In this document: one piece after another, positions 12,994-60,793 of the stretch
How positions within the stretch are numbered: position 1 is the stretch's first letter
How the letters are laid out: each line of letters opens with the position of its first letter
From: a virus
Direction: 5' to 3' (one strand)
Virus record (IMG/VR): IMGVR_UViG_3300045988_155865
Span: 1-60,943 of that record
Length of the DNA: 60,943 nt
Notes under the pieces: generated by a model
Database searches by the model: none
Told to the model about the DNA's origin: nothing
What the model saw: only the letters and a program-made list of their open reading frames with translations
Made by a program: the position numbers and the translations under genes

Positions 12994-13341
12994 ATGGCAA
13001 ATGCGATTTTATTAAATCAATCAACTAATTTAACGAAAGACAATATACTTGACACTTTAAATAAGAGCGTGATTTCAGACATAATGTTTGAAAGTAATAA
13101 ACTAATTATAAAATATGTAAATGACAATGCTGAAGATAAAGAAATAATTCTTCCATTAGATACTATCCAAACAGACATCAGAAATTTAACCAATAATAAA
13201 ATAAATAAAGTGACTAGAGCCGAGGGGCAAATTCCGCAATTAAATTCTGCTGGACAATTAAGTGCTACTGGCTTATTCGCTTCTCGAATAGTTGCTGTTG
13301 GAGATGATACTGATTTAAATTATGAGCCAATAAAAAGTTGA
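12994..13341 (+). CDS. Hypothetical protein (115 aa), first gene of the rightward module
   Basis: AAGGAGG RBS, TGA stop, no internal TAG. Confidence 0.55.
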   Translation: MANAILLNQSTNLTKDNILDTLNKSVISDIMFESNKLIIKYVNDNAEDKEIILPLDTIQTDIRNLTNNKINKVTRAEGQIPQLNSAGQLSATGLFASRIVAVGDDTDLNYEPIKS

Positions 13342-13352
13342 GGTGAAGAATA

Positions 13353-14825
13353 ATGTCTTAGGTACAATTTTTAAGAGGTAAAAACGAAGAAGCTTTAGGT
13401 AAAGTGCCTTTAACGCCAGGAGCAATATTCTTCACAGAAGAAACTAATCATCTCTATATAGATACAGATACTGCAAGACTACCAGTAAAGAGTGATTTTA
13501 TATGCGGTCGAGTCTTTTGGGTTAGATTATCAGTTGCGGACTGGGGAGCCGATAATAAACAAACTGTTTATAAATATTATAATAAATCCAATAGCGCAAA
13601 CGTAGAAGGTAGAGATATTTCTAATGTTTTAACAGATGACTCAATTTTATTTATAGGTAAATCTATTTATGGAACAGCTGATGCGGATGGCACAATGCCT
13701 GCTATCGTAGCAGATTCTTCTACCGCAGATTCTATTACTTTTAGGCTTTTAGATATTGGTGGTAATATTACTATACCAACAGTAGACATATGGATACAAT
13801 TATATTGCCCAAATCCAAATCCGCAATCAGAAAATTATGTTCCAGCAGATGTTCTAAAGACAGCATTTACAACAAGAGTTAGAATTGTTGGAAATTCATG
13901 GGAAGCAAGAGACGGTGAATTTGTACAAACAATCTCTATTCCAAATATAGATTTTACTACACAACCATTCTTTATAAACTTAAGTGATGATTCTCTTGAA
14001 AATAGAATTGAATTTTAGTCAATGCGGATGGAGGTAGTAGATGGAAATATTAAATTCTCATCTGATTTAGAAATTGTCTTTAATATTGAGGTTGATATTT
14101 GTATCATACTTGCGCTTGGTGGTAATGCGAGTTTTACAATAACTGATTTAAATGGTCCGGACAATCCAGACCGTGAATGGGTTAGTCTAAATGTCACCAA
14201 TACTTCTAATATTATTAATGGTGCTAGCTTATCAAATGTTGCGCCGGGGGAAGAACGAGAACTATTAGTTTTTTGCACAAATGATTTATAGGTTAATAAA
14301 AATGATTTTGCTAAAATAATAGATGTAAATTATGCAACGTCTAGTACAAACAATGAGGAAGGTACTTATACATTTGTTCTTGCGGATGGCGAAACAATAG
14401 AAAATGGGTTTAATTGCGTAATTATTTAGTTAAATAATATTGCTAATATAAATACAGGAATTCTTAAAGGTGATGCGGTAGAAGATATGTCAGAAGAAGA
14501 AAAACAAGAAAAATATGTAAATGGTTGGCGACAGGTAACTTCTAAGTTGAATTATACTGGGGAAATGCCAAAAGCAGCTTAGATAGATAAAGGCGCTCAA
14601 TATCGTTATTAGTATTGGCCTACCGCGGTAGAAGATTCAAATTTATTAATAGGAAAACATATGCCTTTAGTAATGCCAAAGAATAATAATGATGCAGTTC
14701 GTTTTAGTAAAATTTGCGAAACAAAAATATATTCCAATAGAATACAGTTTGTCGTTAAAGAAGAAGATTATCAATAGTATTTTAAAGGAAAAGATTTAGA
14801 AATTAAAGTGATTGATTTTATTTAA
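13353..14825 (+). CDS. Tail-fiber-like protein (about 490 aa) with a phage fiber/Mtd-type N-terminus; amber-recoded
   Basis: GAGGTGA RBS. MS-TAG-VQFLRGKNEEALGKVPLTPGAIFFTEETNHLYIDTD resembles the conserved QFRRGT...GE.GF.TDT fiber N-terminal motif. Single frame, at least 7 in-frame TAG, TAA stop, terminator following. Confidence 0.55.
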
Positions 14826-14832
14826 TATAAAA

Positions 14833-14870
14833 GGGTATGAGATTTTTATCTCATACCCTTATTTTATTTT
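14833..14870. terminator. Bidirectional intrinsic terminator
   Basis: gggtatgagat-tttt-atctcataccc flanked by an A-run and a T-run. Confidence 0.65.
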
Positions 14871-15119
14871 GTCAATAAGTGCTTGCGGAAGGTCGACTCC
14901 AAGTTCTTCAAGGACTGCTTTTGCGGTTTCATAACGAGGATCTACAAAATCGCTTTTACTTATTCCTATACATTTAAAGTCTTCACCCTCAATGAAATAG
15001 AAGTCCATCTCATCACCTTCCATAATTTTTAATCTATCACGTAAGCCTTTTGGAATTATTATTCTTCCAGATTTATCTATTTTTCTAATTGCGTTTTCTT
15101 TCTAACAATTAAGATTCAT
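14859..15119 (-). CDS. AbrB/SpoVT (swapped-hairpin) family regulator with in-frame TAG at codon 6
   Basis: GGAGGAAAATAAAAATG start. MNLNC-TAG-KENAIRKIDKSGRIIIPKGLRDRLKI matches the AbrB/MazE DNA-binding motif. Confidence 0.55.
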
Positions 15120-15555
15120 TTTTATTTTCCTCCTTATCACAATGCCCAAAACAAAAACACTCAAATGAACATTGCTTATTTATATCGTCACAAGGTCTAA
15201 TATCTTTAATTAAATCAAAAGGTAAATTGAAATCTTCTTGATATTTTATAATATCTTGATACTGACCATGTTTTATAAAATAATTAAGTATAAAATTATT
15301 TTTTTGTTTATTATAAGTTTTTTCATATTCTTTGATTTGCTTTAATTTTTCTTTATCTTCTTCGCTGTAATCTTCTGCCATAATAATTGGCATCCTCCAA
15401 CGCTCTCCAGAGCCATTCTTTATCCATTTATTATATTTTCTCCAAATTTCATTCTCTAAGACAAGTGGACTTGTTATATTATTTTCTGCGCAATAGTCAT
15501 CAAATGCGGCATTAGCGCAAAATATCAAAGCATTATAGTTATTTAACTCAATCAT
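15109..15555 (-). CDS. Hypothetical protein (about 148 aa), upstream in the same leftward operon as the AbrB-like gene
   Basis: ORF with AAAGAAAGAG RBS. Its stop overlaps the AbrB-like start region. Confidence 0.45.
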   Translation of the reverse strand: MIELNNYNALIFCANAAFDDYCAENNITSPLVLENEIWRKYNKWIKNGSGERWRMPIIMAEDYSEEDKEKLKQIKEYEKTYNKQKNNFILNYFIKHGQYQDIIKYQEDFNLPFDLIKDIRPCDDINKQCSFECFCFGHCDKEENKNES

Positions 15556-15652: not shown

Positions 15653-15682
15653 ATAACTATAGACTGGAGGGATTATAAAATA

Positions 15683-16744
15683 ATGATTAAACTTGATTAT
15701 TCTTTAGAAACTCCAGAAGAACGTAAATTGTTAGTAGAATAGATATTAGAAGAAGTAGAAAATCCTTCTCCTCAATACTTAGAAATTTTAGCTAACTATT
15801 TAATTCTTTGCATGGAGAAACAAGAAAGAAAAGAGAACAAAATTATTACAGAAAATCATTTAGTGACAGTAAATAAAAGAGAAACTTCTTTCGAAGGTCT
15901 TGTTTCCCAATTTGAAAATGGCGAAGATGGAATTTATAATTTGATGACAAAAAATAAAAATATAATATTTCAACCAAAAAAATCAATTACAAAATAGGAT
16001 TTAGAAGAAATACAACCGTTAAGACAATTAAAAGAAGCTATTGATTTGTGGGAAGCAAAATTAAAAACAGTTAAAGGAAAAGACGCCTTTATAATCAAGT
16101 CAGCTTTAATAGAAATGCGAAAAGATTAGTATGTAATAAAAAATGCTTATAGACAACCTATTGTGACAACTAAATTAACAAGAACTAAATATTTTCCAAA
16201 ATTAGATGAAAATATTACTTTTGATAAAGATGGATATTGCGTTCCGACCGGTGTAACGTGTATAGATCCTCGTATATGCGAAACTGCATTATGTAATTAC
16301 GCAAAATTAAAACAAGTATCAGAAGGCAACTTTGAATCTGATTTATGGTATTTTATGTTTGATTTTGATCAATTATTAGAAAAAGCATTAAAAGATGAAC
16401 CTTTGTATAGGCGAATTGTTCAATATAAGATTGAAGGTTTGCAGAATGAAGAAATTTAGAAAGCTCTTTAGGAAGAATTTAATATGACGCATACTGTTGA
16501 ATATATCTCAAGCTTATGGAGAAATAAAATTCCTAAAATGATTGCGTCAGTAGCAGAAGATGAGTATTTGCAATGGTATTATCTTAATGAAAAAAAAGGC
16601 AAGTATAAAAGATGCAGTAGATGTGGGCAAATTAAATTAGCTCATAGCAAGTATTTTTCAAAAAATAAAACAAGCAAAGATGGATTCTATTCTTTATGTA
16701 AATGTTGCAGAAATGCAAGAGCAAAGTTAAAAAAGAAAGGATGA
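15683..16744 (+). CDS. Hypothetical protein with C-terminal zinc ribbon (about 354 aa); amber-recoded
   Basis: Single frame through four sub-ORFs of the track, TAG-only interruptions, TGA stop. C-terminal CSRCGQ...CKCCRNARAKLKKKG. Confidence 0.5.
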
Positions 16745-16750: not shown

Positions 16751-17962
16751 ATGCCTTCAGAAAAAAGTTATTATTGTGAAAAATGCAATAGAACTATGGG
16801 CAGAGAATAGTTCTACTCATCAAATAATTTAGAAAAATATCCCAATGAAGGAGTTTTTCCTCAATGTAAGAAATGTATGACTATGCATGTGGATAACTGG
16901 GACCCAGATACTTACATATGGATTTTACAAGAAGCAGATGTTCCATATATTCCAGAAGAATGGAATAAATTAATGGCTACCTATGCAAAAGACCGCAGCA
17001 AAGTAACTGGAATGTCAATTATTGGTAGATATTTATCTAAAATGAAATTAAAACAATGGAAGTAGTATCGTTGGAAAGATACTGAATTTTTACAGGAGTT
17101 AGCTAATAATAAAATTGAACAAACTATGAAACGCCAAGGATACGATGCAGCGCAAATAGCAACTGCTATAAATAAAGCAACTTTTGAGCTGCCTCCTGGC
17201 GAAATAGCTATTCCTGAATACGAAGAAGGGCAAGAAGATACATTTGTACAAAGTCCCGCCTAGACAACCGAAGAAGAAGCTTTTGATTTAGGCTTAACAG
17301 AAGAGGATATTAGATATTTAAGACTTAAATGGGGAAAAATGTATCGCCCTGAAGAATGGGTTACGCTTGAATAGTTATATGTTGATATGATGAATTCGTA
17401 TGATATATAGGCTGCTGGAGATATAAATACATTAAAACTTGCTTGCAAAAGTTCTCTTAAAGCTAATCAACTATTAGATTTAGGAGATATAGATGGAGCA
17501 TAGAAAGCTTCTAAGATGTATGAAGCTCAGATGAAAGCAGGAAAATGGACAGCTGCGCAAAATAAAACAGATGAAAATGAATTAGTTGATTCTATTGGGG
17601 AGTTAGTTGCTATTTGTGAAAAGGATGGTTTTATACCAGCTTATTATGTTGATGGACCAAAAGATAAAGTTGATAGAGTTATTCAAGATATGTAGATTTA
17701 TACACGAGAATTGGTTACTAATGAACTTGGTCTTGGTAATATGATTGAAAATGCTCTAAAAGCTATTGAAGACGAGAAGGAGCATATTAAAGAAGCTGGA
17801 AATTATGCGGAAGCACTACAAAATAGTAATGAAGAAGATAATTTATTTAATTATGAAAAACCAATCTTAGAAGATGAAGATTTTGATGATTTTAATAATT
17901 TACAAGAGGCAATGAGTGATGAAGATACCCTATCTTATCAACTTCAAGAAGAAGGTGAATAA
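16751..17962 (+). CDS. Zinc-ribbon protein with acidic C-terminus (about 403 aa); amber-recoded. Its position is consistent with a small terminase subunit
   Basis: N-terminal YYCEKCN...CKKC. Frame continuous with TAG only. TAA stop immediately before the large terminase. Confidence 0.4.
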
Positions 17963-17964: not shown

Positions 17965-19752
17965 ATGGCTTTAAATGATTTATTAAAAATTGCAAATAAC
18001 AATAAAAAAATAGGTATTTCAGAAGAGCGTATCAATGAAATAAAAGAACCTCTTAGAAAATATTTTGCTTTTTGGAGAATGTATCCAGATTTATTTGTTG
18101 ATTTTATGTAGACAGGTGGTAAAGCGGTATATTTAAATGATAAAGGATAGAGATGCTATTAGAATGATAGTGGTCAAGAGATTAAACTTACTTTTTCATT
18201 ATTCTTTTATCAAAGAGTGTTTTTGCGCATTGGAATGCGCTTTAAATATGTGTATGCAGTTTTCCCTCGTGCGTATTCTAAGTCATTTTTATCAGTATTG
18301 ATTATGATGATAAGATGTATTTTATACCCAGGAGCGCATTTGTTCAGTGCAGCCGGAGGTAAGGAACAGTCTAGTTAGATTCTGTAGGAAAAAACATTAG
18401 ACATATGCAATAAAATTCCAGCATTTAAAAGAGAAATAGATTGGAGTCGTGGTGCGACATCAATGGGAAAAGACCATTGTAAAGTTATTTTTAAAAATAA
18501 CTCTGATTATGAAAACCTTGCTGCGAGAGAGAGTACAAGAGGTTTGCGTAAACACTCAGGACTGTTGGAAGAGTGTGTTGGTATTGACCAAAAAATGTTA
18601 TAGGAAATTCTTATTCCTTTGATGAACGTATCTCGTCAATGTATGGATGGTACAACTCATGAGGAAGAAGTATTAAATCAATCACAATTATATATTACTA
18701 CAGCTGGATATAAAAATACTTATAGCTATGACAAACTTATTTAGACGTTGGTATAGATGTTAACAGAGCCTGATAAGGCATTTGTTATGGGTGGTACCTG
18801 GAGAATTCCAGTAGCTATTGGATTGCAACCAAAGAATTTCATAAATGACTTAAAAAAAGACTCAACATTTAATGAAGCTTCTTTTGGACGTGAATATGAA
18901 AGTAAATGGTCTGGTACTGTAGAAGATGCTTTCTTTGATGGAGAAAAGTTTGATAGAAATAGAATTTTACAAAAACCAGAGAATGAATGGTCTGGACGTT
19001 CTTCTTCTCAAGCTTATTATATATTAAGTGTCGACGTAGGTAGAAAAGGTTGTCAATCAGTTATTTGCGTTTTTAAGGTAACGCCGCAACCGCAAGGCAC
19101 TTCTATTAAAAATCTAGTAAATATATATACAATTGAAGATGGACATTTTGAAGATTAGGCTATAAAAATTAAAAAATTATTTTATAAATATAAAGCTCGT
19201 AGAGTTGTAATTGATGGTAATGGTCTTGGTATTGGTTTGCTTGATTACATGATAAAATCTCAAGTAGATGGGTCTGGAGATTATTATCCACCTTTTGGAA
19301 TCTATAATGATGATGAAAATTTCTATAAGAAATTTAGAACCAATGATACAGAAGATGAAGCTATTTATATTATAAAGGCGAATGCGCCAATTAATACAGA
19401 AGCTTATTCTACTGTTCAAAGTTAGATTGAAAGTGGAAAAGTAAAATTCTTAATTGAAGAAAAAATAGCTAAAAATAAATTGCTTGGCACAAAAGTTGGA
19501 TAGGCTATGAATCCAGAACAAAGAAATGAATATTTAATTCCTTATAAGCTTACTTCTATATTAAAAGAAGAAATGCTAAATCTTAGAGAGGAAAATGAGG
19601 GTATAAATATTATTTTAAGACAAGCTAATAAGAGTGTTAAAAAAGATAAATTTTCTGCTTTATGTTATGGTTTATATTATATCAAATAGGAAGAAGATAA
19701 TAAGCGTAAAAAGAAAAGATTTAATGCAAAAGACTGGAAATTATTTAATTAA
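17965..19752 (+). CDS. terL: Terminase large subunit (about 595 aa); amber-recoded (about 11 TAG)
   Basis: Deviant Walker A (FPRAYSKSF...PGAHLFSAAGGKEQS). YITTAGYKNT. Nuclease motif YYILSVDVGRKG. One frame across all four track ORFs. Confidence 0.65.
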
Positions 19753-19818
19753 AGTGGGGTTTTTTTAAATAATTTAATATAAATAATTTTTAAGAAACAT
19801 ATGAGAGGAGGTTACTTT

Positions 19819-20175
19819 ATGAGAGCATCTCGTGCGGAAATAAAAATAGAAGATATATTAAAAGAAGCTAATTTAAATTTTCAAATGGAATATAGTTTCG
19901 CTGGACTTAATAGTCCAAATGGCCGACCGTTACGCTTTGATTTTGTAATCTTTGATGATGATGGAAATATAGATTTTATAATAGAATATCAAGGCAAATA
20001 GCATTATGAAGCTAGTTAGAAATTTGGAGGAAAAAGAGGTTTGTATTAGCAATAGTTTAATGATAATAAAAAGCGACGTTTTTGCGCTTTACATGATTTA
20101 AACCTTATTGAAATTCCTTATACAGAAGAAAATTTAATTAACTATGATTATATAATGCATAGGGCTGGATATTAA
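19819..20175 (+). CDS. PD-(D/E)xK-like small nuclease-fold protein (about 118 aa); amber-recoded
   Basis: GRPLRFDFVIFDDDGNIDFIIEYQGK-TAG-HYEAS-TAG-KFGGKRG (D...E-x-K pattern). GAGAGGAGG RBS. Confidence 0.4.
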
Positions 20176-20188: not shown

Positions 20189-21769
20189 TTGGCTATAGAA
20201 CAAGAGGCAATCCATGCGAAAGGCTTTAATATGGGCAAATTAGCTCCTTAGGTAGATTATAGTAAAATTAGAGTTGGAGTAAAATCTTTAGATGATGCAG
20301 TTTTAAATCTTGGGTCTTTGAAAACAGTAGAAAGAAATCTTGGAGACAAAACCACAGTTTTAAGAGCGCTAGCAGATAGAGATTATGAAACTTTAAGAGA
20401 GATTTCAAGATATTTTTATGCAACAAATGGTATATATCACAGAGTATGCGATTATGCGGCTTTTATGTATAGATATGACTGGTATTTAGAGCCAGAAATA
20501 TTTGATACTGAAGTTCCAAGTAAAACTGTATTGTCTGATTTTAGTAAGATATTAGATTATATAGATAAATCTCATATTAAAAAAGTATGTGGAGATATTG
20601 CAAAAAGAATTATTATAGATGGAGCATATTATGGATATGCTATTTAGAATTCTGATAAAATAGTAATTTAGGAATTACCTATTAATTACTGTCGATCTCG
20701 TTATTCCGTAGGAGATATGCCAGCAATAGAATTTAATATGCGATTTTTCGATGAACAATTTAGAGATATAAATTACAGATAGCGTGTTTTAAACTTGTTT
20801 CCTGATGAGTTTAAAAAAGGTTATCTTTTATACAAAAAGGGAAAATTATAGCCTGATTACATTGGAGATACATATGGTAGTTGGTATTTATTAGAGCCAG
20901 GTAATACAATAAAATTTAGTTTTGGTCCAGACGATATTCCAATATTTGTGAACTCTATACCATAGATACTTGATCTTGATGCTGCATAGGATCTAGATCG
21001 CCGCAAACAAATGCAGAAATTATTAAAGATTTTAATTCAAAAATTACCTTTAGATAAAAATGGTGACTTAATATTTGATATTGATGAAGCGAGAGATCTT
21101 CACAACAATGCAATTGAAATGTTAAGGCGTGCTATTGGAGTAGATGTATTAACGACTTTTGCTGATATCAAGGTCGAAGATATGTCTGATAATAATACCA
21201 CAACAACGACAGATGATTTAAAGAAAGTTGAAAGAACTGTATTTAACTCTCTTGGTATCTCATAGAATTTATTTAATACTGATGGAAATCTATCTTTGGA
21301 GAAATCTATTTTAAATGATGAAGCAACATTAAGATAGTTAATACTACAATTTGAAATCTTTTTTGATAGAATGGTTTAGAAAAAGAATCCTCATAAAAAG
21401 AAATATAACTTTAAATTAAGATTCTTAGAAACTACTTAGTATAATTATAAAGAAATGGCAAAGATGTATAAAGAATAGGTATAGTTAGGTTATTCTAAAA
21501 TGTTACCTTAGATTGCGCTTGGCCATGCTCAAAGTTCAATATTAAATACTGCTTACTTTGAAAATGAAGTATTGAACTTGAGTGAAATTATGGTTCCACC
21601 TATGAGTTCTAATACTTTGAATGCAGATGGATTAATAAGTTTAAATGATAGAAAATAGGAGAAGAAAGCTGCGACTTAGACCATAAAGGATGGAACTCCT
21701 GGAAGAAAAGAGCTTCCAGATGATTAGAAAACAGAAAAAACAATTCAAAATAGAGAAAGTATGAGTTAA
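20189..21769 (+). CDS. Portal protein (about 526 aa); amber-recoded (about 19 TAG)
   Basis: AAGGAGGTG RBS with a TTG start (ATG alternative at 20231). A single frame was verified codon by codon to the TAA at 21767-21769. Position between terminase and scaffold/capsid. Confidence 0.55.
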
Positions 21770-21782: not shown

Positions 21783-23117
21783 ATGAGACATTCAAGTATA
21801 AAAATGAATACTCCATGTGAGTTTATTAATATAGTTCCCCTTAACCCATTAATCTCTAAATGTTAGATTAAGGTTTGTTATGTAGGGGACACTGAAAATA
21901 GAAATAAAAGTGTTATTACAAAAGAAACTGCAAAAAAATTAGCAAATTCTCTTCCTGGAAGTCCTATAGTGGGATATTACAATGAAGATATTCAAGATTT
22001 TGATGAGCATACTAAAGAATTAGTTATAAAAAATGGTGAATTAGTCCTTAAAGAAAAAACAAAACCATATGGATTTGTTGATTTAAATGCTCGTTGTTGG
22101 TTTTAGAAGTATATAGATGATGGAACTAATGAACGAGAATATTTAATGACAGAAGGATACTTATGGACTGGTTAGTTTCCAGAGTGTAAACGTATTATAG
22201 AGCAAGGCAATAATCAATCTATGGAGTTGGATACAGATAGTTTAAATGCCTATTGGACAAAAGATGTTAATGGAAATTATGAATTTTTTATAATTAATGA
22301 TGGACTTATATCAAAATTATGTATTTTAGGAGACGAACAAGAACCTTGTTTTGAAGGTTCTACAATTACAAAACCTAAAATAGAATTTACATTTGACAAT
22401 GATTTCAAAGATGCAATGCAATTAATGATTTGTCAATTACAAGAAATTTTAACCAAAGGAGGCTCAGCCAATATGGAAAATAAAGACAAGAACATGATTC
22501 CAGATGAATATAAGAAAAAAGACGACGACAAACAAGAAAAAAAGGACGAAACTAAACAAGAAGAATCAAATAAAACTGATAATAATACAGAGGAAGAAGA
22601 TAAAAAGAAAAAGAAAGAGTTTTCAGAAGAGGTATGTCCGAAATGTGGAAAACCTGTATCTGAATGTACTTGTAAGAAAGAATATTCATTAGAAGAAATT
22701 CCTGAATATATTCAATTAAAAACTGAATTTTCAGCACTTCAAGGAAAATATGATGATTTAATTGGACAAATGAATACTTTAACACAGTCATTAACAAGTT
22801 TACAGGAATTTAAAACTGTAGCTGATAAAAAAGAAAAATTAGCTATGATTGATCAATTTTATATGTTATCAGATAAGGATAAGGAAGATGTTGTAAAGAA
22901 TATTGATACTTATTCTTTAGAAGATATAGAAAATAAGTTGTCTGTTATTTGCTTCCGCAATAAAGTTAATTTTAATGCAGAAGAAAATAATGCTGAAGAT
23001 AAAGATAATGCTCAAGAAGAAAAGAAAGATCCTACAACTTATAACTTAAATGGTCTTGAGAATAATTCAGTTCCTGCTTGGGTGCGTGCTGTAGCCGCAA
23101 CTCAAGGAAATATGTAA
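21783..23117 (+). CDS. Head scaffolding protein (444 aa), possibly with N-terminal prohead protease-like region; amber-recoded
   Basis: Acidic/Lys-rich linker, CPKCGKPVSECTC, then coiled-coil LKTEFSALQGKYDDLIGQMNTLTQSLTSLQEF. Directly upstream of the capsid gene. Confidence 0.45.
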
Positions 23118-23142
23118 TTAAATCAAAGGAGGAAATAAATAG

Positions 23143-31166: not shown

Positions 31167-31220
31167 CAAATGAAAAATTTTTTGATATAATTATATAAAG
31201 AGATAAAGGAGGCTATTAAA

Positions 31221-52966: not shown

Positions 52967-53409
52967 ATGATAGATACTTTAAAAATAGCATAGTGTTTTA
53001 TCTATTATGGTAAAAAAGAACAAAAAGATGATAAAGGAAATGTAACAATATCTAATGGCTGGAATTATGAGGGGACATTAGATGGTATATTTTCCAATAT
53101 AAGCACAAAAGAGCATTCTTTTTCTGGAGAAAACTATAGTATTTATTAGCTTGGCATTTAGTCTGCGCCAGGCTTACGAGTTAATTTAGGATAGAACAAT
53201 GGAGAGATTAGGATTGGGCAAACAGGAATATTTGAATTAAATTTATCAAATTTGTCTCCTTTAAAAGGAACTGTTGTCTTATCGAATTTAGAGAGTGCAT
53301 TAGCAAATACCTATAATGATACTTTAGGAACTTTTTCTGGTAATTGTAATTACTGTTTAATAGATGTCATTTATGCGCAAAATGATGGGAAGGAAGGTGG
53401 TGCTGCGTG
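52967..53409 (+). CDS. Hypothetical tail protein (about 147 aa); amber-recoded
   Basis: AAAAGGAGG RBS. Four in-frame TAG. TGA stop overlapping the next GTG start. Confidence 0.4.
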
Positions 53410-55854
53410 AGAAGCATATATGGAACACGATCTATAATTCCTAACAATTATTATTTTACTTTTGATAAAATTTATGATAATGAAGCGACTGTAAAAAACT
53501 CTTTTGGAGATACTGTCTTAATAGGTAGAACAGTATTAGCTTATAGAGAGCATACTGTTTGGCTAAAAACAAATGCTGGTTATCTAAAAGTTGCAAAATT
53601 AGATAATGAAGGTAGATTTGTTTATTCTGAAGGATGTGTTTTATAGGATAATGAAGATATAGATAAGTTATTTTCTAAAGGCAATACAGAAAATGATGAT
53701 GGTATTTATATTGTAGATACTAAAAAACATACTATAAAAGGAACTTTCCCATAGCCTTATGGTGTTAAAAATGATACTTATAAAAATGACACTATATTTT
53801 TATTATAGTAGTATTCTACTGAGGCAGAAATCACTGAATGGAAAGAATTTATTAAAGATTAGGCAGCAGCTGAAGAGGCGCAAAGAGCAGGAGCTGTTTT
53901 ATATGAAGAAAATGAAAATAAAGTATTTGTTCCTGCGGTTGAATTAAGCCTAAGCACTAAAGTATATGCCATTCCGAAAAAAGCAACTGTAACATCGTTT
54001 TAGATTTTAACACACATAGGTGACGTAGCAGCAATAAAAGAAGATAATATAACTAATAGTGTAGATAAAAAATTATTAGAACATTCTAATAAGATTTTTA
54101 TAAGAAGAATAACCACAACTTTTAAACTATTTACAAAGGAAGATACTGCAGATTATACTTATAATTACAGCGATAAAACTAAAAAGTTTATTGCTACTGG
54201 AAAAAGTAAAGCTGAATCTATGAATTCTTATGTCGATTATATAAAAGCGGAGATAGCTTTAGAATAGTGGTAGGATTTATCAGAAAAATATACTGGTTAT
54301 TTAGGAGCTTTAAATGCAACAGGTTTTAATCATACAGGGGAAAAATATAACGATGCTTCTGGAAAATATTTAACTCTTGTAGATGCGATTAATTAGCTTG
54401 ATAAAGTAATTGGTTCAACTTTAACAAGATTTGAATCAAAAGCTTCAATTGCCGATGCTGCAGATGAGAAAGGTTAGTCTAATCTTGCTGGCGATAAAAG
54501 ACCTATTAATATTAGAGAAGCTGCTTTAGCAGATGCCATAGTTAGACATGATGCAGATATAGGCTAGATAGAAACTTTAGCTACTAGCTTAAATAATATA
54601 GATTTTACTAATGCAGATTCTGATACTAGTGAAAATAGTCTTGGAAATACTAAATTTACTGCTTAGTCATTAACCAATATGATTAAAATTCTTGATAAAA
54701 TTATTGGTACACATCGTAACATTAACGATTCTTATGATAATAGACCAGTTACATTAAAAGATACAGAGACTTTAGTCCAAAATATATAGCATAATAACGC
54801 TGATATTGGTAATATTGAAAGCGTTGATGGAGATAACCTTAAATTTGATAAAAACGTTGCTCCTAGCGATGATGCTACTACTGGTAAAGCCACTATAGAA
54901 TCTGCTACAGATGCAATAAAAGCATTAGATAATATTATAGGAGCTTTAACTATAATAACAAATTTAGATGAGGTTGGAAATAATAATAAGCTTGGAAGAG
55001 ATAATGCAACTGATTTAGTTAATGCGATTTCTATTTTAAAAGGATATATTGGTACTATAAATGATTTAAATGATGAGGTAAATGGTGTTGATTAGAATAA
55101 TTTAGTAGATGCTATTGAAGCATTAAACAAAATTATCGGAGATACTGCTGGAATACACGACATAGATAATGGAAATGATAAAAATAATATTGATGATACA
55201 ATAAATCCAAATTTAGTTTTATCAATTAATAAATTAGATAATCTAATAGGTAGTTTATCAAAAATTCATGCTGTAGATAGTACGAATGAAACAAATAGAC
55301 AAAACAACATTAAAAATAAAGACATCGTTTTAACAATAAATAAATTAGATTCTTTAATTGGAGCAATACAAGCACTACATAATATAAATGATAATGACAG
55401 AAACGACATTAGATTAGACAGTTTGACAGAAACAATAAATAAATTAGATAGTTTAATAGGAGGCTTAAACAAATTAAATAATACTCCTAATAATTTATCT
55501 GAATAGAATGATCGCAAAAATCTTACAACCGCGATTAATAAATTAGATCATATAATAGGTTTATGGTCTTCAGAAGGTTGGCATCAAAGTTTAAAAGGTT
55601 CTGATTCGATTGATGAATCATCTTTTAATGATATAGTATTATACCTAAGAAATGTTGATTAGTGGTTACAAAAACTTTAGGAAAGTAAAGTAAATATAGG
55701 AACATTTAACACCTGGATAGAATTAATAAATAATCTTGGTGAAAATATGGATATCCTAGATGCAAATGTTACTACTTTATATGAATGGATAAACAATTCT
55801 GATAACACAAATTCGGGATGCAATTCTATTAATCTTACTTGGGGAACATTTTAA
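53407..55854 (+). CDS. Tail fiber protein (about 815 aa) with internal NKLD-x-LIG repeats; amber-recoded
   Basis: Frame verified codon by codon over 53644-53823 (includes a TAG-TAG pair). Repeated INKLDNLIGSL / INKLDSLIGAI / INKLDSLIGGL / INKLDHIIGL modules. TAA stop plus terminator. Confidence 0.5.
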
Positions 55855-55865
55855 TATTTTATTTT

Positions 55866-55908
55866 TAAGGGAACTAAAATTTTTATTTTAGTTCCCTTAA
55901 TTTTTTTT
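55866..55908 (+). terminator. Intrinsic terminator after the tail fiber
   Basis: aagggaactaaaat-tttt-attttagttccctt plus a T-run. Confidence 0.75.
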
Positions 55909-56018: not shown

Positions 56019-56426
56019 ATGTATCCACAACAAACACCTCAAATGAATTATGGTAATTATTACCAGTAGCAAGCTGTTCGTCCTACTCCAATAGTTCCTC
56101 AAGGATTAAAAGGAAGACCTGTTAGCTCATTAGATGAAGTGCGTGCGGCAGCAGTTGATTTTGATGGTTCAATTTTCTATTTTCCTAATTTAGCCAATGA
56201 TACAATTTATACTAAACAAATTAATTTAGATGGAACTTCTTCAGTACGAGTTTATGAATTAGTAGAAGCACCTCCTACTACGCCACCAGTTCCAGTAGTA
56301 GATAATTTAGTAACAAAAGATGAATTTACTAAAACCATAAATAGTTTATTAGAAGAAATTTCTGCCCTAAAAGGTAAGTCAGCGCCGGCCGCATAGACGG
56401 CCCCACCGCAAGAGTTTAATTTTTAA
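56019..56426 (+). CDS. Hypothetical protein (about 135 aa), Pro/Thr-rich linker plus coiled tail; two TAG
   Basis: AAAAGGAGAG RBS. MYPQQTPQMNYGNYYQ-TAG-QAVRP... Confidence 0.4.
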
Positions 56427-56444
56427 TAAAAAGGAGAGATTATT

Positions 56445-56678
56445 ATGAATCCAATGCAAATAATTCAAATGTTAAAAAATGGCGGAAATCCACAACAAAT
56501 CGTTATAGGTATGTTAGAACAAAATTCACAAGATAATCCTGTCCTTGATAATTTGTTATCTTTAGCAAAAGAAGGAAATACATAGGAGATAGAAAATTTT
56601 GCTCGAAACATGCTAAAGGAACAAGGAAAGGATTTTGATAAAGAATTTAATTCCTTTAAGCAAAGCTTAGGGTTTTAA
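56445..56678 (+). CDS. Small protein (77 aa); one TAG
   Basis: AAAGGAGAG RBS. Confidence 0.35.
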
Positions 56679-56712
56679 ATAAATAAAAAATTTTTATAAG
56701 GAGGAAAAACAT

Positions 56713-57579
56713 ATGTTTAATGGAACAAATGGTTATAGCCTATCAGATATCGCAGCTGTAACAGAGAGTGGTAATCGTAGTAACAGTGGAAACGGTATGT
56801 GGGGAGATGGCGGTGCTTGGTGGATCATCATCTTATTCCTATTCGTATTCTGCGGCTGGGGCAACGGAGGCTGGGGAGGCTTCGGAGGAGGCAATGGCAC
56901 CGGACTTCAAGGAGCTTTAACTCGTGCCGATCTTTGTCAAGATATGAACTTCCAAGGCTTAGAAAATGGAGTTCGTGGAATTCAGCAAGGACTATGTGAT
57001 GGTTTCTATGCTTAGAACACTAATATTTTAAATGGCTTTGCTGGAGTACAGAATTCATTGGCTACTGGCTTTGCCGGTGTTGATAATGCTGTATGCACAT
57101 TAGGTTATAATACGCAGCAAGGATTCAACACAATGAATGTTGCAAACTTACAAAGCACAAACGCGATTCAATCTGATATTAATGCTAATACTGTTGCTGG
57201 TATGCAGAATACTAATTCGCTTCAGGCTCAAATCGCACAATGCTGCTGCGAAAACAAAGCGGGCCAAGCTGACATAAAATATCAGATGGCAACAGATACT
57301 TGCGCAGTTCAGAATACGATCTAGAGCACAACAAGAGATATAATTGACAATAATAATGCTAATACAAGAAGCATTTTAGATTTCTTAGTACAAGATAAGA
57401 TTTCTTCATTAGAGTCAGAAAATCAAAGCTTAAGACTTGCAGCGTCACAGTCTGCTCAAAATCAATATTTAGTTAATGAACTAAGACCTTGTCCAGTTCC
57501 GGCTTATGTAACATGCAACCCTTGGGCTGCTTCATATGGCTTCAACAACTATAATGGATGCGGTTGTGGTTGCAACTAA
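56713..57579 (+). CDS. Gly/Asn-rich single-pass membrane protein with Cys-rich C-terminus (about 288 aa); amber-recoded
   Basis: GDGGAWWIIILFLFVFCGWGNGGWGGFGGGNG TM/Gly segment. C-terminal NPWAASYGFNNYNGCGCGCN. Track ORFs 56713 and 57058 share a frame. Confidence 0.45.
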
Positions 57580-57615
57580 TTAACGAAAACTCACTATATT
57601 GGAGGTTGAAAGAAA

Positions 57616-58038
57616 ATGGCTGAATATACAGCAAACGCCTTACAAACAGTTGGCGTAAATCAAAATGTTTTACTTACAGACGAACCTGTAAAAGGAAATT
57701 GCTCCATAATCCATAGAGATGGTAGTGGTCTTGTTACTCTGCGCGGCATTACTAATCAATGTCGCGCGAGATTCCGAGTTTATTTCAATGGTAATATCGC
57801 TATTCCTACTGGCGGAACTGTTGAATCTATTTCTCTTGCGATTTCAATAAATGGAGAACCAGTAGCGTCTTCAACAATGATTGTAACTCCTGCTGCAGTT
57901 GGAGAGTTTTTTAATGCCGGTGGTAGTATATTTATCAATGTACCTGCTGGATGTTGCGCTTAGATTAGCGTAGAAAATACGAGTACTCAATCAATTAGTG
58001 TTTAGAATGCTAATTTAATTGTAGAAAGAGTTGCGTAA
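57616..58038 (+). CDS. BclA C-terminal/C1q-TNF-like jelly-roll domain protein (about 140 aa); one TAG near the end
   Basis: LRGITNQCRARFRVYFNGNIAIPTGGTVESISLAISINGEPVASSTMIVTPAAVGEFFNAGGSIFINV is characteristic of the exosporium BclA-C-type domain. Confidence 0.4.
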
Positions 58039-58052
58039 GGAGGTAAACAGAG

Positions 58053-58613
58053 ATGGAAAAATTAAAATCTATGAAAGAATGCTTAATGTCTTGCGCACAG
58101 ACCTAGATGGGTAATCTACAAGGAGTAGATACGAAAGAACTTGGAGAAGTAATTGATATGATAAAAGATCTAGAGGAAGCTATCTATTATTGTACAATTA
58201 CTAAAGCTATGGAAGAAGATAACGAGCATAAAAATAAAGAAAGTCATCATTATTATACGGAAAGAGTAATCTACCCAAAAGATGAATATAATAGAGATAT
58301 AGATAGAGAATATGGTAAAATGTATTACACACCAAGCAATGGAGGTAACAGTACTACTACCACAAGTTCTCCTCGTTATTATACAGAAATAACAAGAGAT
58401 GAAAAAGAAGGCAGAAGTCCTATATAGAGAAAAATGTATATAGAAGCCAAAGAAAAGCATCAGGATAAAGCTACTCAATTAAAAGAACTTGAAAAATATA
58501 TGAATGAGTTAGCTAATGATATGACAGAAATGATCGCTGATGCCTCTCCAGAAGAACGTCAATTCTTTGAAAGAAAATTATCTTAGCTAGCAACTAAAAT
58601 AAGTCATGTTTAA
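58053..58613 (+). CDS. Hypothetical protein (about 186 aa); amber-recoded
   Basis: AAGGAGGTAAA RBS. Three TAG. TAA stop. Confidence 0.4.
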
Positions 58614-58929
58614 TATGAATGGATATAGGTGGGAAGTAATAATTACTTCCCCATCTCATCCATGTCTTAGACGTTCTAATGGCTCATATGCACTTGGCTC
58701 TTGTGACAATAATTGCAAAACAATATATTTAAATGAATTTATTCCTACTGATAAATTACTAAAAGTTTTATGCCATGAGATTACACATGCGGCAATGTTT
58801 AGTTATAATGTAAATTTAAACTTAGATTAGGAAGAACTAATTGCAGATTTAATAGCTACGTATGGAAAAGAAATAACATCGACCGCAGATAAAATTTTTA
58901 AAAAAATATCAAAAAAATGGGGTGCTTAA
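58606..58929 (+). CDS. Small HExxH zinc-metallopeptidase-motif protein (about 107 aa); one TAG
   Basis: VLCHEITHAAMF (HExxH). Overlaps the upstream stop. TAA inside the terminator stem. Confidence 0.35.
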
Positions 58930-58946
58930 TGCACCCCGATTTTTTT
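58919..58946. terminator. Bidirectional intrinsic terminator
   Basis: ggggtgc-ttaa-tgcacccc flanked by A7 and T7 runs. Confidence 0.7.
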
Positions 58947-59403
58947 ATAGGTTATTATGGTATTTTATTTGAACATCTTCATATAATCTATCTCCATCGT
59001 GATTTCCTCCCAATGAATTATATGTGTCATGCTCTGAACTAATCATATCCCATTCTTTTGAAGTAATTTCATGATCTTCTTTTAATAACTTATGACAATC
59101 AGTCTTAAAACTTTTTCCTTGAATACAAAGGATACCATCTCTTAAAATGTCTAAATCAGTTTCTAAACAATTTATTTGTTTCTGAAGATGTTCATTTCTT
59201 CGCTAAGATTGTTGCTTATGGTCTTGAATTATATCTAAAACTTCTTGATTAATAGAATCTTTTAGAGTATCATCTTCTTCTTGTCTAATATGTTCCTATT
59301 CTTTTTTATATAAGCTATAAAATTTTTTTGCTAAAAAGCCAGTTCCAGTAGCAATTAAACCAAAGATAATTTCAAGCCAGTATTGAACGATAAAAGTTAT
59401 CAT
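58945..59403 (-). CDS. Membrane protein with N-terminal TM helix and coiled-coil (about 152 aa); two in-frame TAG
   Basis: GGGAGGTTGAAT RBS. MITFIVQYWLEIIFGLIATGTGFLA, then K-rich coiled coil. Could be a lysis or regulatory membrane protein. Confidence 0.4.
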
Positions 59404-59475
59404 AATTCAACCTCCCAACTTATACTGTCAATATCTTTAATTTTAGAGAGGTTAATATTATTTAAAATCGCCCAG

Positions 59476-59952
59476 TTAATCCCAGTTAAAATCTTCTTGT
59501 AATTGAGATTTATAAGTACCTATACAAATAGCATCACTTTCATCTTGAGAAACTTTTAAACCATATTTGTTTTCAACAAATTTTTGCGCGTTTCGTTTTT
59601 GTTCCTCTCGACGAGCTCCTTTTATACTAAGCTTTGATTTCCATACTGCCGCAAGCACTGCAGAATTTGGTATATTACGCTCTTCTAATACTTCATTTAA
59701 TACCCCAAAAACTTCTGCTAAAGCTTTAAAAGTAGTTACATTACCACCTTGCATTTGGATATCTTCAAAAATAACTTCATCTATATTGTAGTCTTCAATT
59801 AATTGTAGAACTTTATTTCTTATTTTTACTAATCGTTGTCCTATGTTAGAATCTGTAAAAGTAAAAATTCCACTTTCTACAAGACCCCCATCTTCAAAGA
59901 CAGCCCAACCTGAAGTCCTTGAACTCTAGTCTAATGCCAGAAGATTAGCCAT
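59476..59952 (-). CDS. RuvC-like Holliday-junction resolvase (about 158 aa); one in-frame TAG
   Basis: MANLLALD-TAG-SSRTSGWAVF (RuvC motif I-like) and C-terminal DESDAICIGTY (catalytic Asp motif). Confidence 0.55.
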
Positions 59953-60793
59953 TTTGTATCAATTCCTCCCATCTTTCTTTTGAAATCTTATTATTTGTTA
60001 TTATTAAGTCTAGTCTTTCGACCCAGTGAAGAGGAATTTGTGTTTCAGGATGCTTTCCAGCACTTTTTGCTTTTCCTCTAATACAAGCTCTTATATTGTT
60101 TGGACTTAAATTGCAATACTATCCAGCTTCTTTAGAAGAAGAAAATAGTTTATCTAATTCAATGCAATATACAGGAATTTTTATACCTTTTAAAATTTCC
60201 TTTTTATTTCTTAGTTTTAATATTTCTTCATTATTTTTATCTTCAACATATAACCAATGTAAAGGCTATCCTAATGGAGAAAAACCTGAATAATTTAATT
60301 GTTTTTTACAAGCTTTTTGAATAGAACTATTGTCGATACCAGTTAATCTCTAAGCTTCAAGAGCACTTTCAAAATCTTTATTTAATTCAACGCAATAAAC
60401 AGGTGTATTTATAACTTCTTTAAAAATACCATTCTCCCACATTTCATAGTTAAGCTATTTTCGAAGTTCTTTCTATTCTTTTGTTAAAGTATTAGAATTA
60501 CCACCTTCTGTCATATTATATCCAAAATCTTGATTATTTGAATTATATAACATGATTAATTCTTTTTCTTTTTTATTAGCCTATTCTCTTGTTAAATTTG
60601 TAAATAAAATTTCATGAGTAAAATTATCCCAACCATATTTTAGAATAGCTTTTTTAAAATGGTCATTCCCTTTTCTTAAATATTCACTACCATTTTTACC
60701 CCATCTTCTAGAAATTGACTATTTTGTTTGACCAATATATTTTTTATTATTGATTTTATTAGTATGACAATAAATAATATACTCATTATCCAT
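59945..60793 (-). CDS. GIY-YIG homing-endonuclease-like protein with NUMOD-type repeats (about 282 aa); amber-recoded
   Basis: YIIYCHTNKINNKKYIGQTK-TAG-SISRRWGKNG (GIY-YIG). Repeated IPVYCxELxKxFxSxxEA modules. Stop overlaps the RuvC start. Hand-translated, so an internal frameshift cannot be excluded. Confidence 0.45.

Follow-up and report, generated by a model that had tools for sequence, protein, structure and literature searches.

TAG is very probably read as glutamine in an SPbeta/EF1/phAss-1-like siphovirus of the human gut

Background

Phages that read TAG as glutamine (genetic code 15) are well documented (10.1101/2021.08.26.457843; PMC9523058). They include crAss-like phages, Lak phages and the clades of Borges et al. 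(10.1101/2021.08.26.457843), and proteomic proof of glutamine at TAG has been given for other phages by Peters et al. (PMC9523058). Recoded members have already been described in the clade of phAss-1, EF1 and the SPβ-like siphoviruses (PMC10607447), among them phAss-1 (OQ749652), one of the large gut siphoviruses described by Babkin et al. 2023 (PMC10607447) and listed at NCBI as "Caudoviricetes code 15 clade".

The DNA analysed here, called the window throughout, is a stretch of 60,943 nucleotides that corresponds to positions ~2,993–63,935 of a 156,767-bp contig and to ~40% of a phage genome of ~155 kb. Its sequence indicates that the source is very probably an SPbeta/EF1/phAss-1-like siphovirus of the human gut that uses code 15. 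In this phage TAG appears to be read as glutamine in middle and late genes, with a suppressor tRNA of its own encoded outside the window.

Results

For this analysis an ORF could contain neither TAA nor TGA, and 34 such ORFs, located at 12,931-60,793, were taken as late or accessory genes. These comprise 15,032 codons with 278 in-frame TAGs and not a single in-frame TAA or TGA, against 659 and 950 TAAs and 161 and 788 TGAs in the off-frames of the same DNA. The central claim of the initial annotation, that genes of this region are interrupted by TAG and never by another stop, is thereby upheld, although it does not extend to every long gene, as four ORFs of the region carry no TAG (Table 1). 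Thirty of the 34 ORFs end in TAA and four in TGA; TAG terminates none of them, nor any of 161 ORFs in a genome-wide set that includes TAG-free ones. The use of TAA and TGA at gene ends is thus consistent, as had been stated, whereas the terminators said to follow them are found after some genes only, as terminator-like hairpins (16 found versus 5.5 expected; gene-end examples in Table 1). With TAG as sense, the longest stop-to-stop ORF grows from 377 to 2,891 aa (382 aa with TGA as sense), and the coding density of 12,901-60,943 rises from 0.53 under table 11 to 0.97 (0.59 with TGA as sense). The gene caller of the public collection already translates the window genes through TAG.

The sequence contexts listed earlier are present: SAE-TAG-MARFAK-TAG-ANIAAKEL... 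(32,413), YIGQTK-TAG-SISRRW and LALD-TAG-SSRTSGWAV, the GIY-YIG and RuvC identities being borne out by Pfam matches, and MS-TAG-VQFLRG, which does open the protein at 13,353-14,825 but whose "fiber" label lacks family support. The nine ORFs noted for the tape measure are those of at least 100 aa among the 78 fragments into which 77 TAGs divide it, and the protein given as 2,033 aa is real but has 2,009 aa when counted from the first ATG. The start placed at 12,994 is also in order (Table 1); a TAG lies upstream of it at 12,973. The terminase homologue, which we infer to be TerL, additionally matches two short PHROGs (15503 and 24618) and no Pfam family, and the three distal-tail/baseplate proteins likewise match no Pfam family. 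TerL of phAss-1 has been reported as TAG-fragmented (PMC10607447), a report whose coordinates were not matched to the phAss-1 ORF aligned here. The presumed early block encodes a PcfJ-like product of 357 aa.

Table 1. Features of the window; early, middle and late are presumed classes based on what the genes encode, their orientation and their TAG density.
Feature	Position	Strand	Remarks
Presumed early block	1018..10251	-	13 ORFs of at least 92 aa, 0 in-frame TAG; stops TAA/TGA
First gene, plus-strand late block	12994..13341	+	ATG 12,994 after Shine-Dalgarno AAAGGAGG
490-aa protein, 7 TAG	13353..14825	+	MS-TAG-VQFLRG N-terminus; no family match
ORF without TAG	15,109-15,555	-
Sigma-factor-like protein, C-terminal zinc-ribbon/HNH-like tail, 5 TAG	15683..16744	+	phrog_5767; 40% identity to EF1 ORF
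YonG_N-family protein, 403 aa, 7 TAG	16751..17962	+
Large terminase homologue, 595 aa, 12 TAG	17965..19752	+	43% over 566 aa to phAss-1 ORF; 41-53% to three EF1 pieces
Homing-endonuclease-like ORF, 124 aa, 4 TAG	19801..20175	+	Between terminase and portal; phrog_9084, phrog_559
Portal protein, 512 aa, 17 TAG	20231..21769	+	TAG at 71% of Gln positions; phrog_2739, E 1e-76
YonD_N-family protein, 444 aa, 3 TAG; head-module protein, 222 aa, 1 TAG	21783..23811	+	TAG-poor here and in relatives
Major capsid protein, YonB family, 363 aa, 0 TAG	23832..24923	+
Head-module protein, 188 aa, 0 TAG	25015..25581	+
Head-tail joining/tail-completion proteins, 184, 120, 331, 189 (YomW) and 241 (YomV) aa	25604..28755	+	TAG 4, 2, 7, 6 and 11
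Tail tube protein, YomU_Tube, 325 aa, 0 TAG	28779..29756	+
450-aa protein, 15 TAG; YomO-like 176-aa protein, 2 TAG	29814..31751	+
Tape measure, PhageMin_Tail, 2,883 aa, 77 TAG	31876..40527	+	TAA within 12-bp terminator hairpin 40,513-40,540
Three large distal-tail/baseplate proteins, 2,009, 1,166 and 841 aa	40695..52940	+	TAG 32, 17 and 13; weak similarity to phAss-1 ORFs
147-aa protein, 4 TAG; 544-aa repeat-containing protein, 11 TAG	52967..55854	+	Then terminator 55,865-55,900
Six to seven small genes closing the plus-strand block	56019..58929	+	1-3 TAG each
Gly/Cys-rich membrane-like protein, 288 aa	56,713-57,579	+	Among the small genes 56019..58929
Bidirectional terminator	58,918-58,938
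Leftward replication/metabolism block, beginning	58945..60793	-	Includes 152-aa ORF, 2 TAG
RuvC, 1 TAG	59,476-59,952	-	Pfam
GIY-YIG endonuclease, 7 TAG	59,945-60,793	-	Pfam
3' end of 188-aa gene running off the window	60886..60943	-	Putative dUTPase-like by eye

Codon-level evidence supports glutamine as the meaning of TAG. Residues opposite TAG were tabulated on DNA codons, so that the counts are independent of how databases translate it. In ten IMG/VR relatives (~60% aa identity), 18-23% of the codons opposite TAG are Gln codons (background 3.2%) and 12-15% are TAG itself (background 1.0%), a profile like that of the window's CAA/CAG codons, and glutamine is the maximum-likelihood assignment, ~300 log units above the next amino acid. 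The predicted enrichment of glutamine is also seen in MT836163, which has Gln codons at 27 of 59 (46%) window TAG positions and no in-frame TAG, and in the standard-code Enterococcus phage EF1, where Gln is the top residue opposite TAG (19/101 versus 5% background); phAss-1 has 24 Gln and 6 TAG opposite 112 window TAGs. Among strains, TAG<->CAG is the main TAG polymorphism (18 of 163 positions, 11%) and behaves as a synonymous change would: synonymous transitions occur at 4.8-8.9%, first-position T<->C changes that are non-synonymous number 7 of 1,264, and all codons one base away from TAG other than CAG together account for 2 of ~1,600. The phage also encodes a collagen-like protein, whose G-X-Q triplets are spelled with CAA/CAG eight times and with TAG three times, and a papain-family peptidase, in which a TAG stands opposite the Gln of the DQGxxGSC motif (PDB 3ois_A), six residues ahead of the aligned Cys. 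TAG is evolutionarily interchangeable with CAG/CAA.

No tRNA of any kind was detected in the window, in agreement with the earlier statement that it holds no suppressor. One tRNA(CUA) gene lies elsewhere in the genome, ~23 kb to the left of the window, its sequence being that of the 98%-identical strain IMGVR_UViG_3300045988_163776 and not of the window's own contig. It is 88 nt long (57.7 bits, Rfam tRNA), forms the final gene of a 16-tRNA array oriented like the TAG-free blocks, and has a predicted near-consensus sigma-70-type promoter of its own (TTGAAA-17-TGATATAAT). Its acceptor stem (U1-A72, G2-C71, G3-C70) and discriminator G73 are those of the phage tRNA-Gln(UUG), the only phage tRNA with which the stem agrees. 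The variable region carries an extra 15-nt hairpin, a long variable arm that, to our knowledge, canonical tRNA-Gln never has. Such an arm in combination with G73 resembles the features recognized by SerRS, and charging with glutamine cannot be taken for granted. In the 153 kb of genome read no release-factor GGQ-type motif was found and, beside the single suppressor gene, the genes identified include neither RF2, nor a candidate RF1 inhibitor, nor a glutaminyl-tRNA synthetase.

Reassignment to another amino acid, be it serine through SerRS (which ignores the anticodon), leucine, tyrosine or pyrrolysine, draws on this same tRNA, with its class II-like variable arm, its G73, the label "Pyl" that ARAGORN assigns from the anticodon, and a whole-sequence identity (73% to tRNA-Leu, 68% to tRNA-Gln) that is not discriminating. 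It is nevertheless very unlikely: Ser, Leu, Tyr, Lys and Trp are not enriched opposite TAG and score at least ~300 log units below Gln (Ser -374), TAG<->TCG, TTG, TAT and TAC polymorphisms occur once or not at all, the collagen and peptidase TAGs fall on Gln sites, and the acceptor stem points to tRNA-Gln alone. Moreover, pylT is unlike canonical tRNAs in its D and T loops, which are canonical in this tRNA, and nothing resembling a pyl gene was noticed.

TAG is used in a graded manner across the genome, rising from ~0.4 per 1000 codons in presumed early blocks to ~8 in those for replication, nucleotide metabolism and lysis. The virion block reaches 18.7, with TAG making up 39% of its Gln codons. 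The presumed early side of the window (1,018-11,755) contains 18 ORFs of at least 60 aa without any in-frame TAG; since the ORFs of the early block stop at TAA or TGA, they read identically under the standard code and code 15. Infection without any code switch, in a host with TAG as a sense codon of its own, would agree with the lack of TAG terminators even in TAG-free ORFs, and 185,579 species genomes yielded no relative and no matching tRNA. However, the three TAG-free blocks, ~11,000 codons in total, have only 5 TAGs at a Gln usage of 3.0-3.5%, which is unexpected for an ordinary sense codon; the phage brings its own tRNA and predicted promoter; in-frame TAG is missing from one close relative; and cultured relatives grow on standard-code Bacillota (EF1 on Enterococcus faecalis). 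We know of no bacterium in which TAG means glutamine and regard such a host as highly improbable.

The lack of any true reassignment, with leaky read-through, pseudogenes or sequencing and assembly errors in its place, would accommodate the 85 short ORFs into which table 11 divides the gene-dense late region, yet it is hardly credible and already contradicted by the present data, because the frame is kept through all 278 TAGs, 12 contigs of this phage, each assembled independently, have identical TAGs (1,434 TAG-TAG aligned cells at 180 positions), which are therefore not assembly errors, diverged relatives have them at 12-15% of positions, a 90% read-through per site over 77 TAGs would by arithmetic leave ~0.03% full-length product of the essential tape-measure gene, and a dedicated tRNA(CUA) is present.

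Throughout the clade, the genes for capsid and tail tube lack TAG. All 14 Gln codons of the major capsid gene are CAA or CAG (P=0.0011), and the 3,384 codons aligned to it from 10 relatives include 0 TAG; the tail tube gene (0 TAG, P=0.0023) likewise has 0 TAG among the 2,058 codons aligned from 7 relatives. The TAG-free 188-aa head-module gene is CAG-rich (6/13 Gln codons).

Discussion

Assuming that TAG is decoded as glutamine, an unmodified standard-code host would read the TAG-free genes first, while host RNA polymerase would transcribe the suppressor tRNA and host enzymes would charge it with glutamine. Full translation of TAG-containing genes would be possible only after the tRNA has built up, and recoding would thereby hold back homing endonucleases as well as virion and lysis functions. 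A gene with 77 TAGs would demand nearly complete decoding, for which host RF1 would have to be outcompeted or disabled. The most abundant virion proteins may avoid TAG because even a small per-codon loss would be costly for them.

The E. coli supE-type amber suppressors, derived from tRNA-Gln, have a CUA anticodon and insert glutamine at UAG; the phage tRNA is similar in having a tRNA-Gln-like body with that anticodon and differs in its extra variable-region hairpin. Whereas supE suppression is partial and proceeds alongside termination at UAG, in the window phage UAG would be a regular sense codon, with up to 77 per gene. EF1 (MF001358) and the faecal contig MT836163 have the virion gene order of the window, at 25-53% and 38-64% aa identity, and at window TAG sites most often CAA or CAG; the EF1 genes, however, are annotated as uninterrupted under table 11, and MT836163 has 0 in-frame TAG in 3,445 aligned codons.

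The window phage and phAss-1 have syntenic virion modules, with aa identities of 43% for the terminase, 39% for the portal and 50% for the capsid, a homologous tube and a ~3,000-aa tape measure. They also resemble each other in having TAG as glutamine in the virion genes and in part of the DNA-metabolism genes, in placing tRNA(CUA) genes on the other strand from the virion module and in the apparent lack of a dedicated aminoacyl-tRNA synthetase (PMC10607447). Of the phAss-1 suppressors, one shares the long variable arm and comes closest (78%) to the tRNA(CUA) described here. The window phage nonetheless represents a separate genus, with aa identity of only 31-50% and no nucleotide-level match to the window in the GenBank phage collection. 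Its genome is larger (~155 kb versus 136 kb) and yielded 16 tRNAs, one of them a suppressor, versus 36 with three; its suppressor, unlike those of phAss-1, does not adjoin nrdD.

The findings fit the published model of code-15 phages, with standard-code-compatible early genes, a phage-encoded suppressor tRNA, TAG never serving as terminator, recoded structural, lysis and homing-endonuclease genes and variably recoded replication genes. The window phage differs in belonging to another lineage with an SPbeta-like virion module and probably a Bacillota host, in having no RF2 gene in the 153 kb read, and in its TAG-free tail tube gene, whereas a preferentially recoded one is mentioned for crAss-like phages (Borges et al., 10.1101/2021.08.26.457843). 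It is a clear case of an already described phenomenon and not a novel one; two side observations, the TAG-free capsid and tail-tube genes across the clade and the long variable arm of the suppressor tRNA, look undescribed.

Amber codons as sense codons

Once TAG is taken as a sense codon, the longest stop-to-stop ORF of the window (60,943 bp, 30% GC) grows from 377 to 2,891 codons and the summed ORFs of at least 100 codons approximately double, an effect that is almost absent in the control with TGA as sense. Between 12,901 and 60,943, a greedy set of non-overlapping ORFs yields a coding density of 97% with TAG as sense, against 53% with table 11 and 59% with TGA as sense, which bears out the recoding proposed in the initial annotation. 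That annotation stated that TAG only, never TAA or TGA, interrupts the long genes. In the late and accessory gene set, defined as the 34 TAA/TGA-free ORFs at 12,931-60,793, the 15,032 codons include 278 in-frame TAG, 0 TAA and 0 TGA, whereas TAA and TGA abound in the two alternative frames of this DNA. These ORFs terminate in TAA (30) or TGA (4); the 13 minus-strand ORFs at 1,018-10,251 are without TAG altogether, and their stops are likewise TAA or TGA only. The window TAGs are real, not errors, since the same positions carry TAG in 12 contigs of the phage that were assembled independently (1,434 TAG-TAG cells at 180 positions). Because table 11 breaks the 48-kb late region into about 85 short ORFs, this genome needs gene calling with table 15.

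The start proposed at 12,994 is indeed an ATG behind AAAGGAGG, the count of nine large tape-measure fragments and all the quoted TAG-bearing motifs are correct, and Pfam confirms the GIY-YIG and RuvC labels. Genes had also been described as ending in TAA or TGA followed by terminators; the stop codons stand, but terminator-like hairpins follow only some genes. Neither the 490-aa 'fiber' candidate nor the 2,009-, 1,166-, 841- and 544-aa tail proteins have a match in Pfam or PHROGs.

Several genes of the late region are of separate interest (Table). The terminase homologue has two separate short PHROG matches, to families that may have been built from fragments of terminases that are TAG-recoded or, as in the Enterococcus phage EF1, intron-split, and thus may be an annotation artefact; the EF1 homologue is split into three, and the annotation has an HNH gene among the pieces. 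A cassette of two overlapping minus-strand genes interrupts the plus-strand late block, and a 288-aa protein without a family match lies in the highest-GC segment of the window.

Table. Features discussed in the text. Plain coordinates refer to the window; L034 and L114 are stretches of the near-identical IMG/VR strain, L027 is a stretch of phAss-1, and L025, L029 and L113 are other fetched DNA stretches.
Feature	Location	Description
TAG-poor tier	three blocks including 1-11.8 kb	0.4-0.5 TAG per 1000 codons (5 in ~11,000); ~1% of Gln codons
Middle tier	post-tRNA block, array region, and replication/nucleotide-metabolism/lysis block from 58.9 kb	7.8-8.8 TAG per 1000 codons; 21-26% of Gln codons
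Top tier	virion block, 12.9-58.9 kb	18.7 TAG per 1000 codons; 39% of Gln codons
Microsatellite-like repeats	1-110	(AT)n, (AC)n, (ATAC/ATGT)n, inside a ~2.4-kb stretch without called gene (L025:10643-13122)
Antitoxin-fold protein	14859-15119 (-)	86 aa, MazE/AbrB-like, PF04014, 1 TAG
Cassette partner	15109-15555 (-)	148-aa ORF, TAG-free
Sigma-factor-like protein	15683-16744	phrog_5767, 5 TAGs, head of virion block
Terminase homologue	17965-19752	PHROG 15503 (residues 76-242) and 24618 (residues 370-594)
Homing-endonuclease-like ORFs (HNH, GIY-YIG)	19801-20175; 59945-60793; L029:658-1305; L034:18350-19312; L113:1158-1901	TAG-dense, 4-10 TAG each
Head proteins	21783-23117; 23143-23811	near TAG-free
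Capsid	23,832-24,923	0 TAG, Poisson P 0.0011
188-aa head protein	25,015-25,581	0 TAG, Poisson P 0.03
Tail tube	28,779-29,756	0 TAG, Poisson P 0.0023
Terminator-like hairpins, most prominent	40,513-40,540; 55,865-55,900; 58,918-58,938
288-aa protein	56713-57579	Gly/Asn/Gln/Cys-rich, N-terminal hydrophobic segment, C-terminal GCGCGCN tail; 37% GC; CAG 8 of 22 CAA/CAG codons (unusually high); only 2 TAG
tRNA(CUA)	L034:20198-20285 = L114:10498-10585	~23 kb left of window, in the 98%-identical genome
phAss-1 long-arm suppressor	L027:15443-15533	78% identity to tRNA(CUA)
Odd or degenerate tRNA-like elements	L034:10620-10689; 13607-13678; 14348-14420; 16393-16467; 16493-16563; 16594-16664	in the tRNA array
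Collagen-repeat protein	L114:14549-15151	outside window
Peptidase_C1 + SLH-domain protein	L114:~16923-17852	outside window

Assignment of TAG to glutamine

The residues aligned to TAG were tabulated from codons on fetched DNA, with X placed at TAG during alignment; protein-database homologues were left out because that collection translates through TAG, which makes Q at TAG circular. Among near-identical strains, TAG and CAG are polymorphic at 18 of 163 positions (11%), to be compared with 4.8-8.9% for synonymous transitions, 7/1,264 for non-synonymous first-position T<->C changes and 2 in ~1,600 for all other one-base neighbours of TAG. On these counts, selection treats TAG and CAG as synonymous. 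Ten IMG/VR relatives at ~60% identity, all with in-frame TAG of their own, have Gln codons opposite the window TAGs in 18-23% of cells (background 3.2%) and TAG in 12-15% (background 1.0%), a profile like that of the window CAA/CAG codons used as control (Gln 30-36%, TAG 6-8%). Scored with substitution profiles derived from these alignments, Gln fits best, ahead of Asn, Lys, His, Glu and Ser by ~300 log-likelihood units. The faecal contig MT836163 is free of in-frame TAG over 3,445 aligned codons; where the window has TAG, this contig shows a Gln codon in 27 of 59 cases (46%; Q->Q control 36%), and in EF1, which is cultured and uses the standard code, Gln is the top residue, opposite 19 of 101 (19%; background 5%, Q->Q control 27%).

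Two proteins that the same phage encodes outside the window agree with this assignment. In the collagen-like protein, G-X-Q triplets are written with CAA/CAG eight times and with TAG three times, the three codons being interchangeable at the Y position of the G-X-Y triplets. In the Peptidase_C1-SLH protein, alignment to PDB 3ois_A places a TAG at the Gln of the DQGxxGSC motif, with the aligned Cys six residues further on; this Gln is the invariant oxyanion-hole residue of papain-like enzymes. When TAG is counted as Gln, the Gln content is 3.0-4.8% in all genome blocks.

Pyrrolysine decoding is rejected, as the residues aligned to TAG are Gln, not Lys, and the tRNA with the matching anticodon, described below, is canonical with normal D and T loops; nothing like the pyl genes was noticed either. 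Readings of TAG as Ser, Leu or Tyr fail on the codon-substitution data. The initial annotation, which had proposed glutamine, was therefore right in both observation and interpretation, and by every criterion that can be tested computationally the phage appears to be a code-15 phage.

Source genome and relatives

The exact capsid protein is present on 23 contigs read, up to 157 kb in length, and the index lists it in 37 blocks of the collection. The public records already call genes through TAG, with products (490, 353, 403, 595, 512 … 2,883 aa) that equal the recoded ORFs; public pipelines thus already translate the phage correctly. Window positions 1-11,659 are 100% identical to ENA ERZ28664023 scaffold_39 (156,767 bp), on which the window is placed at ~2,993-63,935. 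IMG/VR contains a near-identical strain (IMGVR_UViG_3300045988_163776), whose contig of 155,695 bp is permuted differently, is 96.8-98.4% identical in nucleotide sequence and encodes the same capsid protein (100% identity); an exact 48-mer from the right edge of the window has no match in IMG/VR, owing to strain differences. This contig was walked with chimeric two-protein edge queries, which recovered 1,964-154,668 of its 155,695 bp, and the walk with the window in the middle constitutes a 153-kb pseudo-genome. A number of independent assemblies stop 3-3.4 kb left of the repeats at the window start, a region that could correspond to a genome terminus or an origin region, or simply to a repeat that is hard to assemble.

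Precomputed Pfam matches describe an SPβ-like virion module (YonB capsid, YomU tube, YomV, YomW, YonG, YonD, YomO and a PhageMin_Tail tape measure). In GenBank, the portal protein has its nearest neighbours in MT836163, which is unannotated (57% identity), in phAss-1 (OQ749652; 39%), placed by NCBI in a "Caudoviricetes code 15 clade", and in ~140-kb standard-code Enterococcus siphoviruses such as EF1 (28%). In phAss-1, TAG codes for Gln and there are three tRNA-Sup(CTA) genes; together with EF1 and the Enterocloster phage PMBT10, phAss-1 forms a monophyletic group, several members of which have in-frame TAG (Babkin et al., PMC10607447). The window shares with this group homologous and syntenic terminase, portal, capsid, tube and very long tape measure genes, with 21 same-order HSPs to EF1 and 25 to phAss-1, and the genome scale of the group, roughly 130-160 kb, is that of the contigs found here (155.7 and 156.8 kb). 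By homology and synteny, the phage is assigned to the phAss-1/EF1/SPβ-like group of large siphoviruses. Membership in the proposed genus Phassvirus (phAss-1, BK046881 and BK025033, with a reported nucleotide identity among members of 80-86%) is rejected: 24 kb of the virion module gave no megablast match in the GenBank phage collection, and protein identity to phAss-1 is only 31-50%.

The SLH domain on the phage peptidase hints at an S-layer host among the Bacillota. Since, in addition, relatives have been cultured on Enterococcus and Enterocloster and the virion is SPβ-like, we infer that the phage probably infects an S-layer-bearing member of the Bacillota. Searches of 185,579 species genomes with the capsid protein and a 46-mer of the suppressor tRNA returned nothing, and so no host or prophage lead. 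The phage is a new, uncultured code-15 phage; the phenomenon, the model and the recoding tendency of the clade are already published.

A suppressor tRNA outside the window

As the initial annotation reported, the window has no suppressor tRNA; it is without any tRNA. In the IMG/VR strain, an array of 16 tRNAs lies ~13-23 kb left of the window; it is on the minus strand with respect to the window and runs in the direction of the TAG-free genes. The last gene of the array encodes the sole tRNA that has a CUA anticodon. The window's own contig presumably carries the same gene. The Rfam tRNA model matches this tRNA over its full length (57.7 bits). The acceptor stem and discriminator of tRNA(CUA) (U1-A72, G2-C71, G3-C70, G73) recur in the phage tRNA-Gln(UUG) but in none of the other array tRNAs; these elements alone discriminate, as overall sequence identity to the other tRNAs does not. 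The variable region contains a 15-nt insertion that folds as an extra 4-bp hairpin, in the manner of class II tRNAs. Its closest relative is a long-arm suppressor of phAss-1, whose first three acceptor pairs and G73 are common to the phAss-1 tRNA-Gln(UUG); these three pairs differ between the suppressors of the two phages, each matching its own tRNA-Gln. A promoter-like TTGAAA-17 nt-TATAAT with an extended −10 TG can be read ~85 nt upstream of the gene, and a hairpin follows it. The term "variable arm" has no occurrence in the recoding papers searched, and we regard the long-arm Gln-type suppressor as a lead, not a conclusion.

No second suppressor was found among the 31-41-bit tRNA hits of the array, those inspected (L034:17900-17984 left out) having UUU, GUG or CUC anticodons or degenerate loops. 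The array also holds odd tRNA-like elements, one of which has an 8-nt anticodon loop (ARAGORN 'gatt'), possibly a four-base anticodon; others score only 31-41 bits and show acceptor-stem mismatches or abnormal T loops. A motif search of six-frame translations of the 153 kb found no GGQxVN-type release-factor motif, and the genes adjoining tRNA(CUA) are fibre-like, collagen-like, peptidase and radical SAM genes, none of them synthetase-like.

Distribution of TAG along the genome

TAG usage follows a three-tier gradient over the whole genome (Table), with one promoter-equipped suppressor tRNA exactly between the TAG-free and TAG-containing stretches, on the same strand; none of 161 ORFs in the pseudo-genome ends in TAG. 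Outside the virion module, homing-endonuclease-like ORFs belong to the genes with the highest TAG density. By eye, a GIY-YIG ORF of L029 lies within the region of a DNA polymerase III alpha-like protein, and a 197-aa ORF of the same stretch lies between two ORFs resembling a split nrdD.

Inside the most TAG-dense block, the capsid, the 188-aa head protein and the tail tube have no TAG at all (joint Poisson P ~1e-7); 34 of their 34 Gln codons are CAA or CAG, with CAG used more than in neighbouring genes. Homologues of the capsid, the neighbouring 222-aa protein and the tube in 7-10 relatives likewise have no TAG in 7,628 aligned codons, next to flanking genes with 8-23 TAG per 1000 codons. The portal, terminase, tape measure and tail-completion proteins have 20-46 per 1000, and the 77 TAGs of the tape-measure gene imply, by simple arithmetic, near-complete decoding. 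This distribution suggests that a slightly costly codon is avoided in the highest-copy virion proteins, again a lead and not a conclusion; avoidance of TAG in capsid and tube is not mentioned in the recoding papers searched. A more speculative reading, which we hold to be rather improbable, is that the long-arm suppressor and a TAG density inverse to protein copy number belong to one mechanism, in which TAG acts as a graded translational throttle. If so, TAG would help to set virion stoichiometry, being more than an on/off timer, and the additional hairpin might suit the suppressor to reading UAG efficiently or to evading surveillance by the host.

Comparison with other recoded phages

Jade, Lak and Agate phages possess a code-change module with a release factor and/or a synthetase, whereas here the motif search of the 153 kb found no release factor and no gene next to the suppressor tRNA looks like a synthetase. 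In the model of Borges et al. (10.1101/2021.08.26.457843), early genes are readable in the standard code, a suppressor tRNA accumulates, and structural, lysis and selfish-element genes follow; in crAss-like phages, Gln at TAG has been identified by mass spectrometry (Peters et al., PMC9523058). The present phage has the same layout. Its early genes would be read by a standard-code host, its suppressor tRNA would then build up, and the structural, lysis and selfish-element genes would be translated after that accumulation. If late transcription is under the control of the sigma-factor-like protein, the suppressor would be required for making that protein, and the code switch would be coupled to a transcriptional switch. 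The phage adds a well-resolved, probably Bacillota-infecting SPβ-like case to the evidence for phage code switching during infection. Its TAG-free abundant proteins and long-arm suppressor offer small, testable leads on the efficiency and limits of natural amber decoding, limits that are relevant to engineered genetic-code expansion. A preferentially recoded tail tube gene has been reported in crAss-like phages (Borges et al., 10.1101/2021.08.26.457843), whereas in this phage the tail tube is TAG-free.
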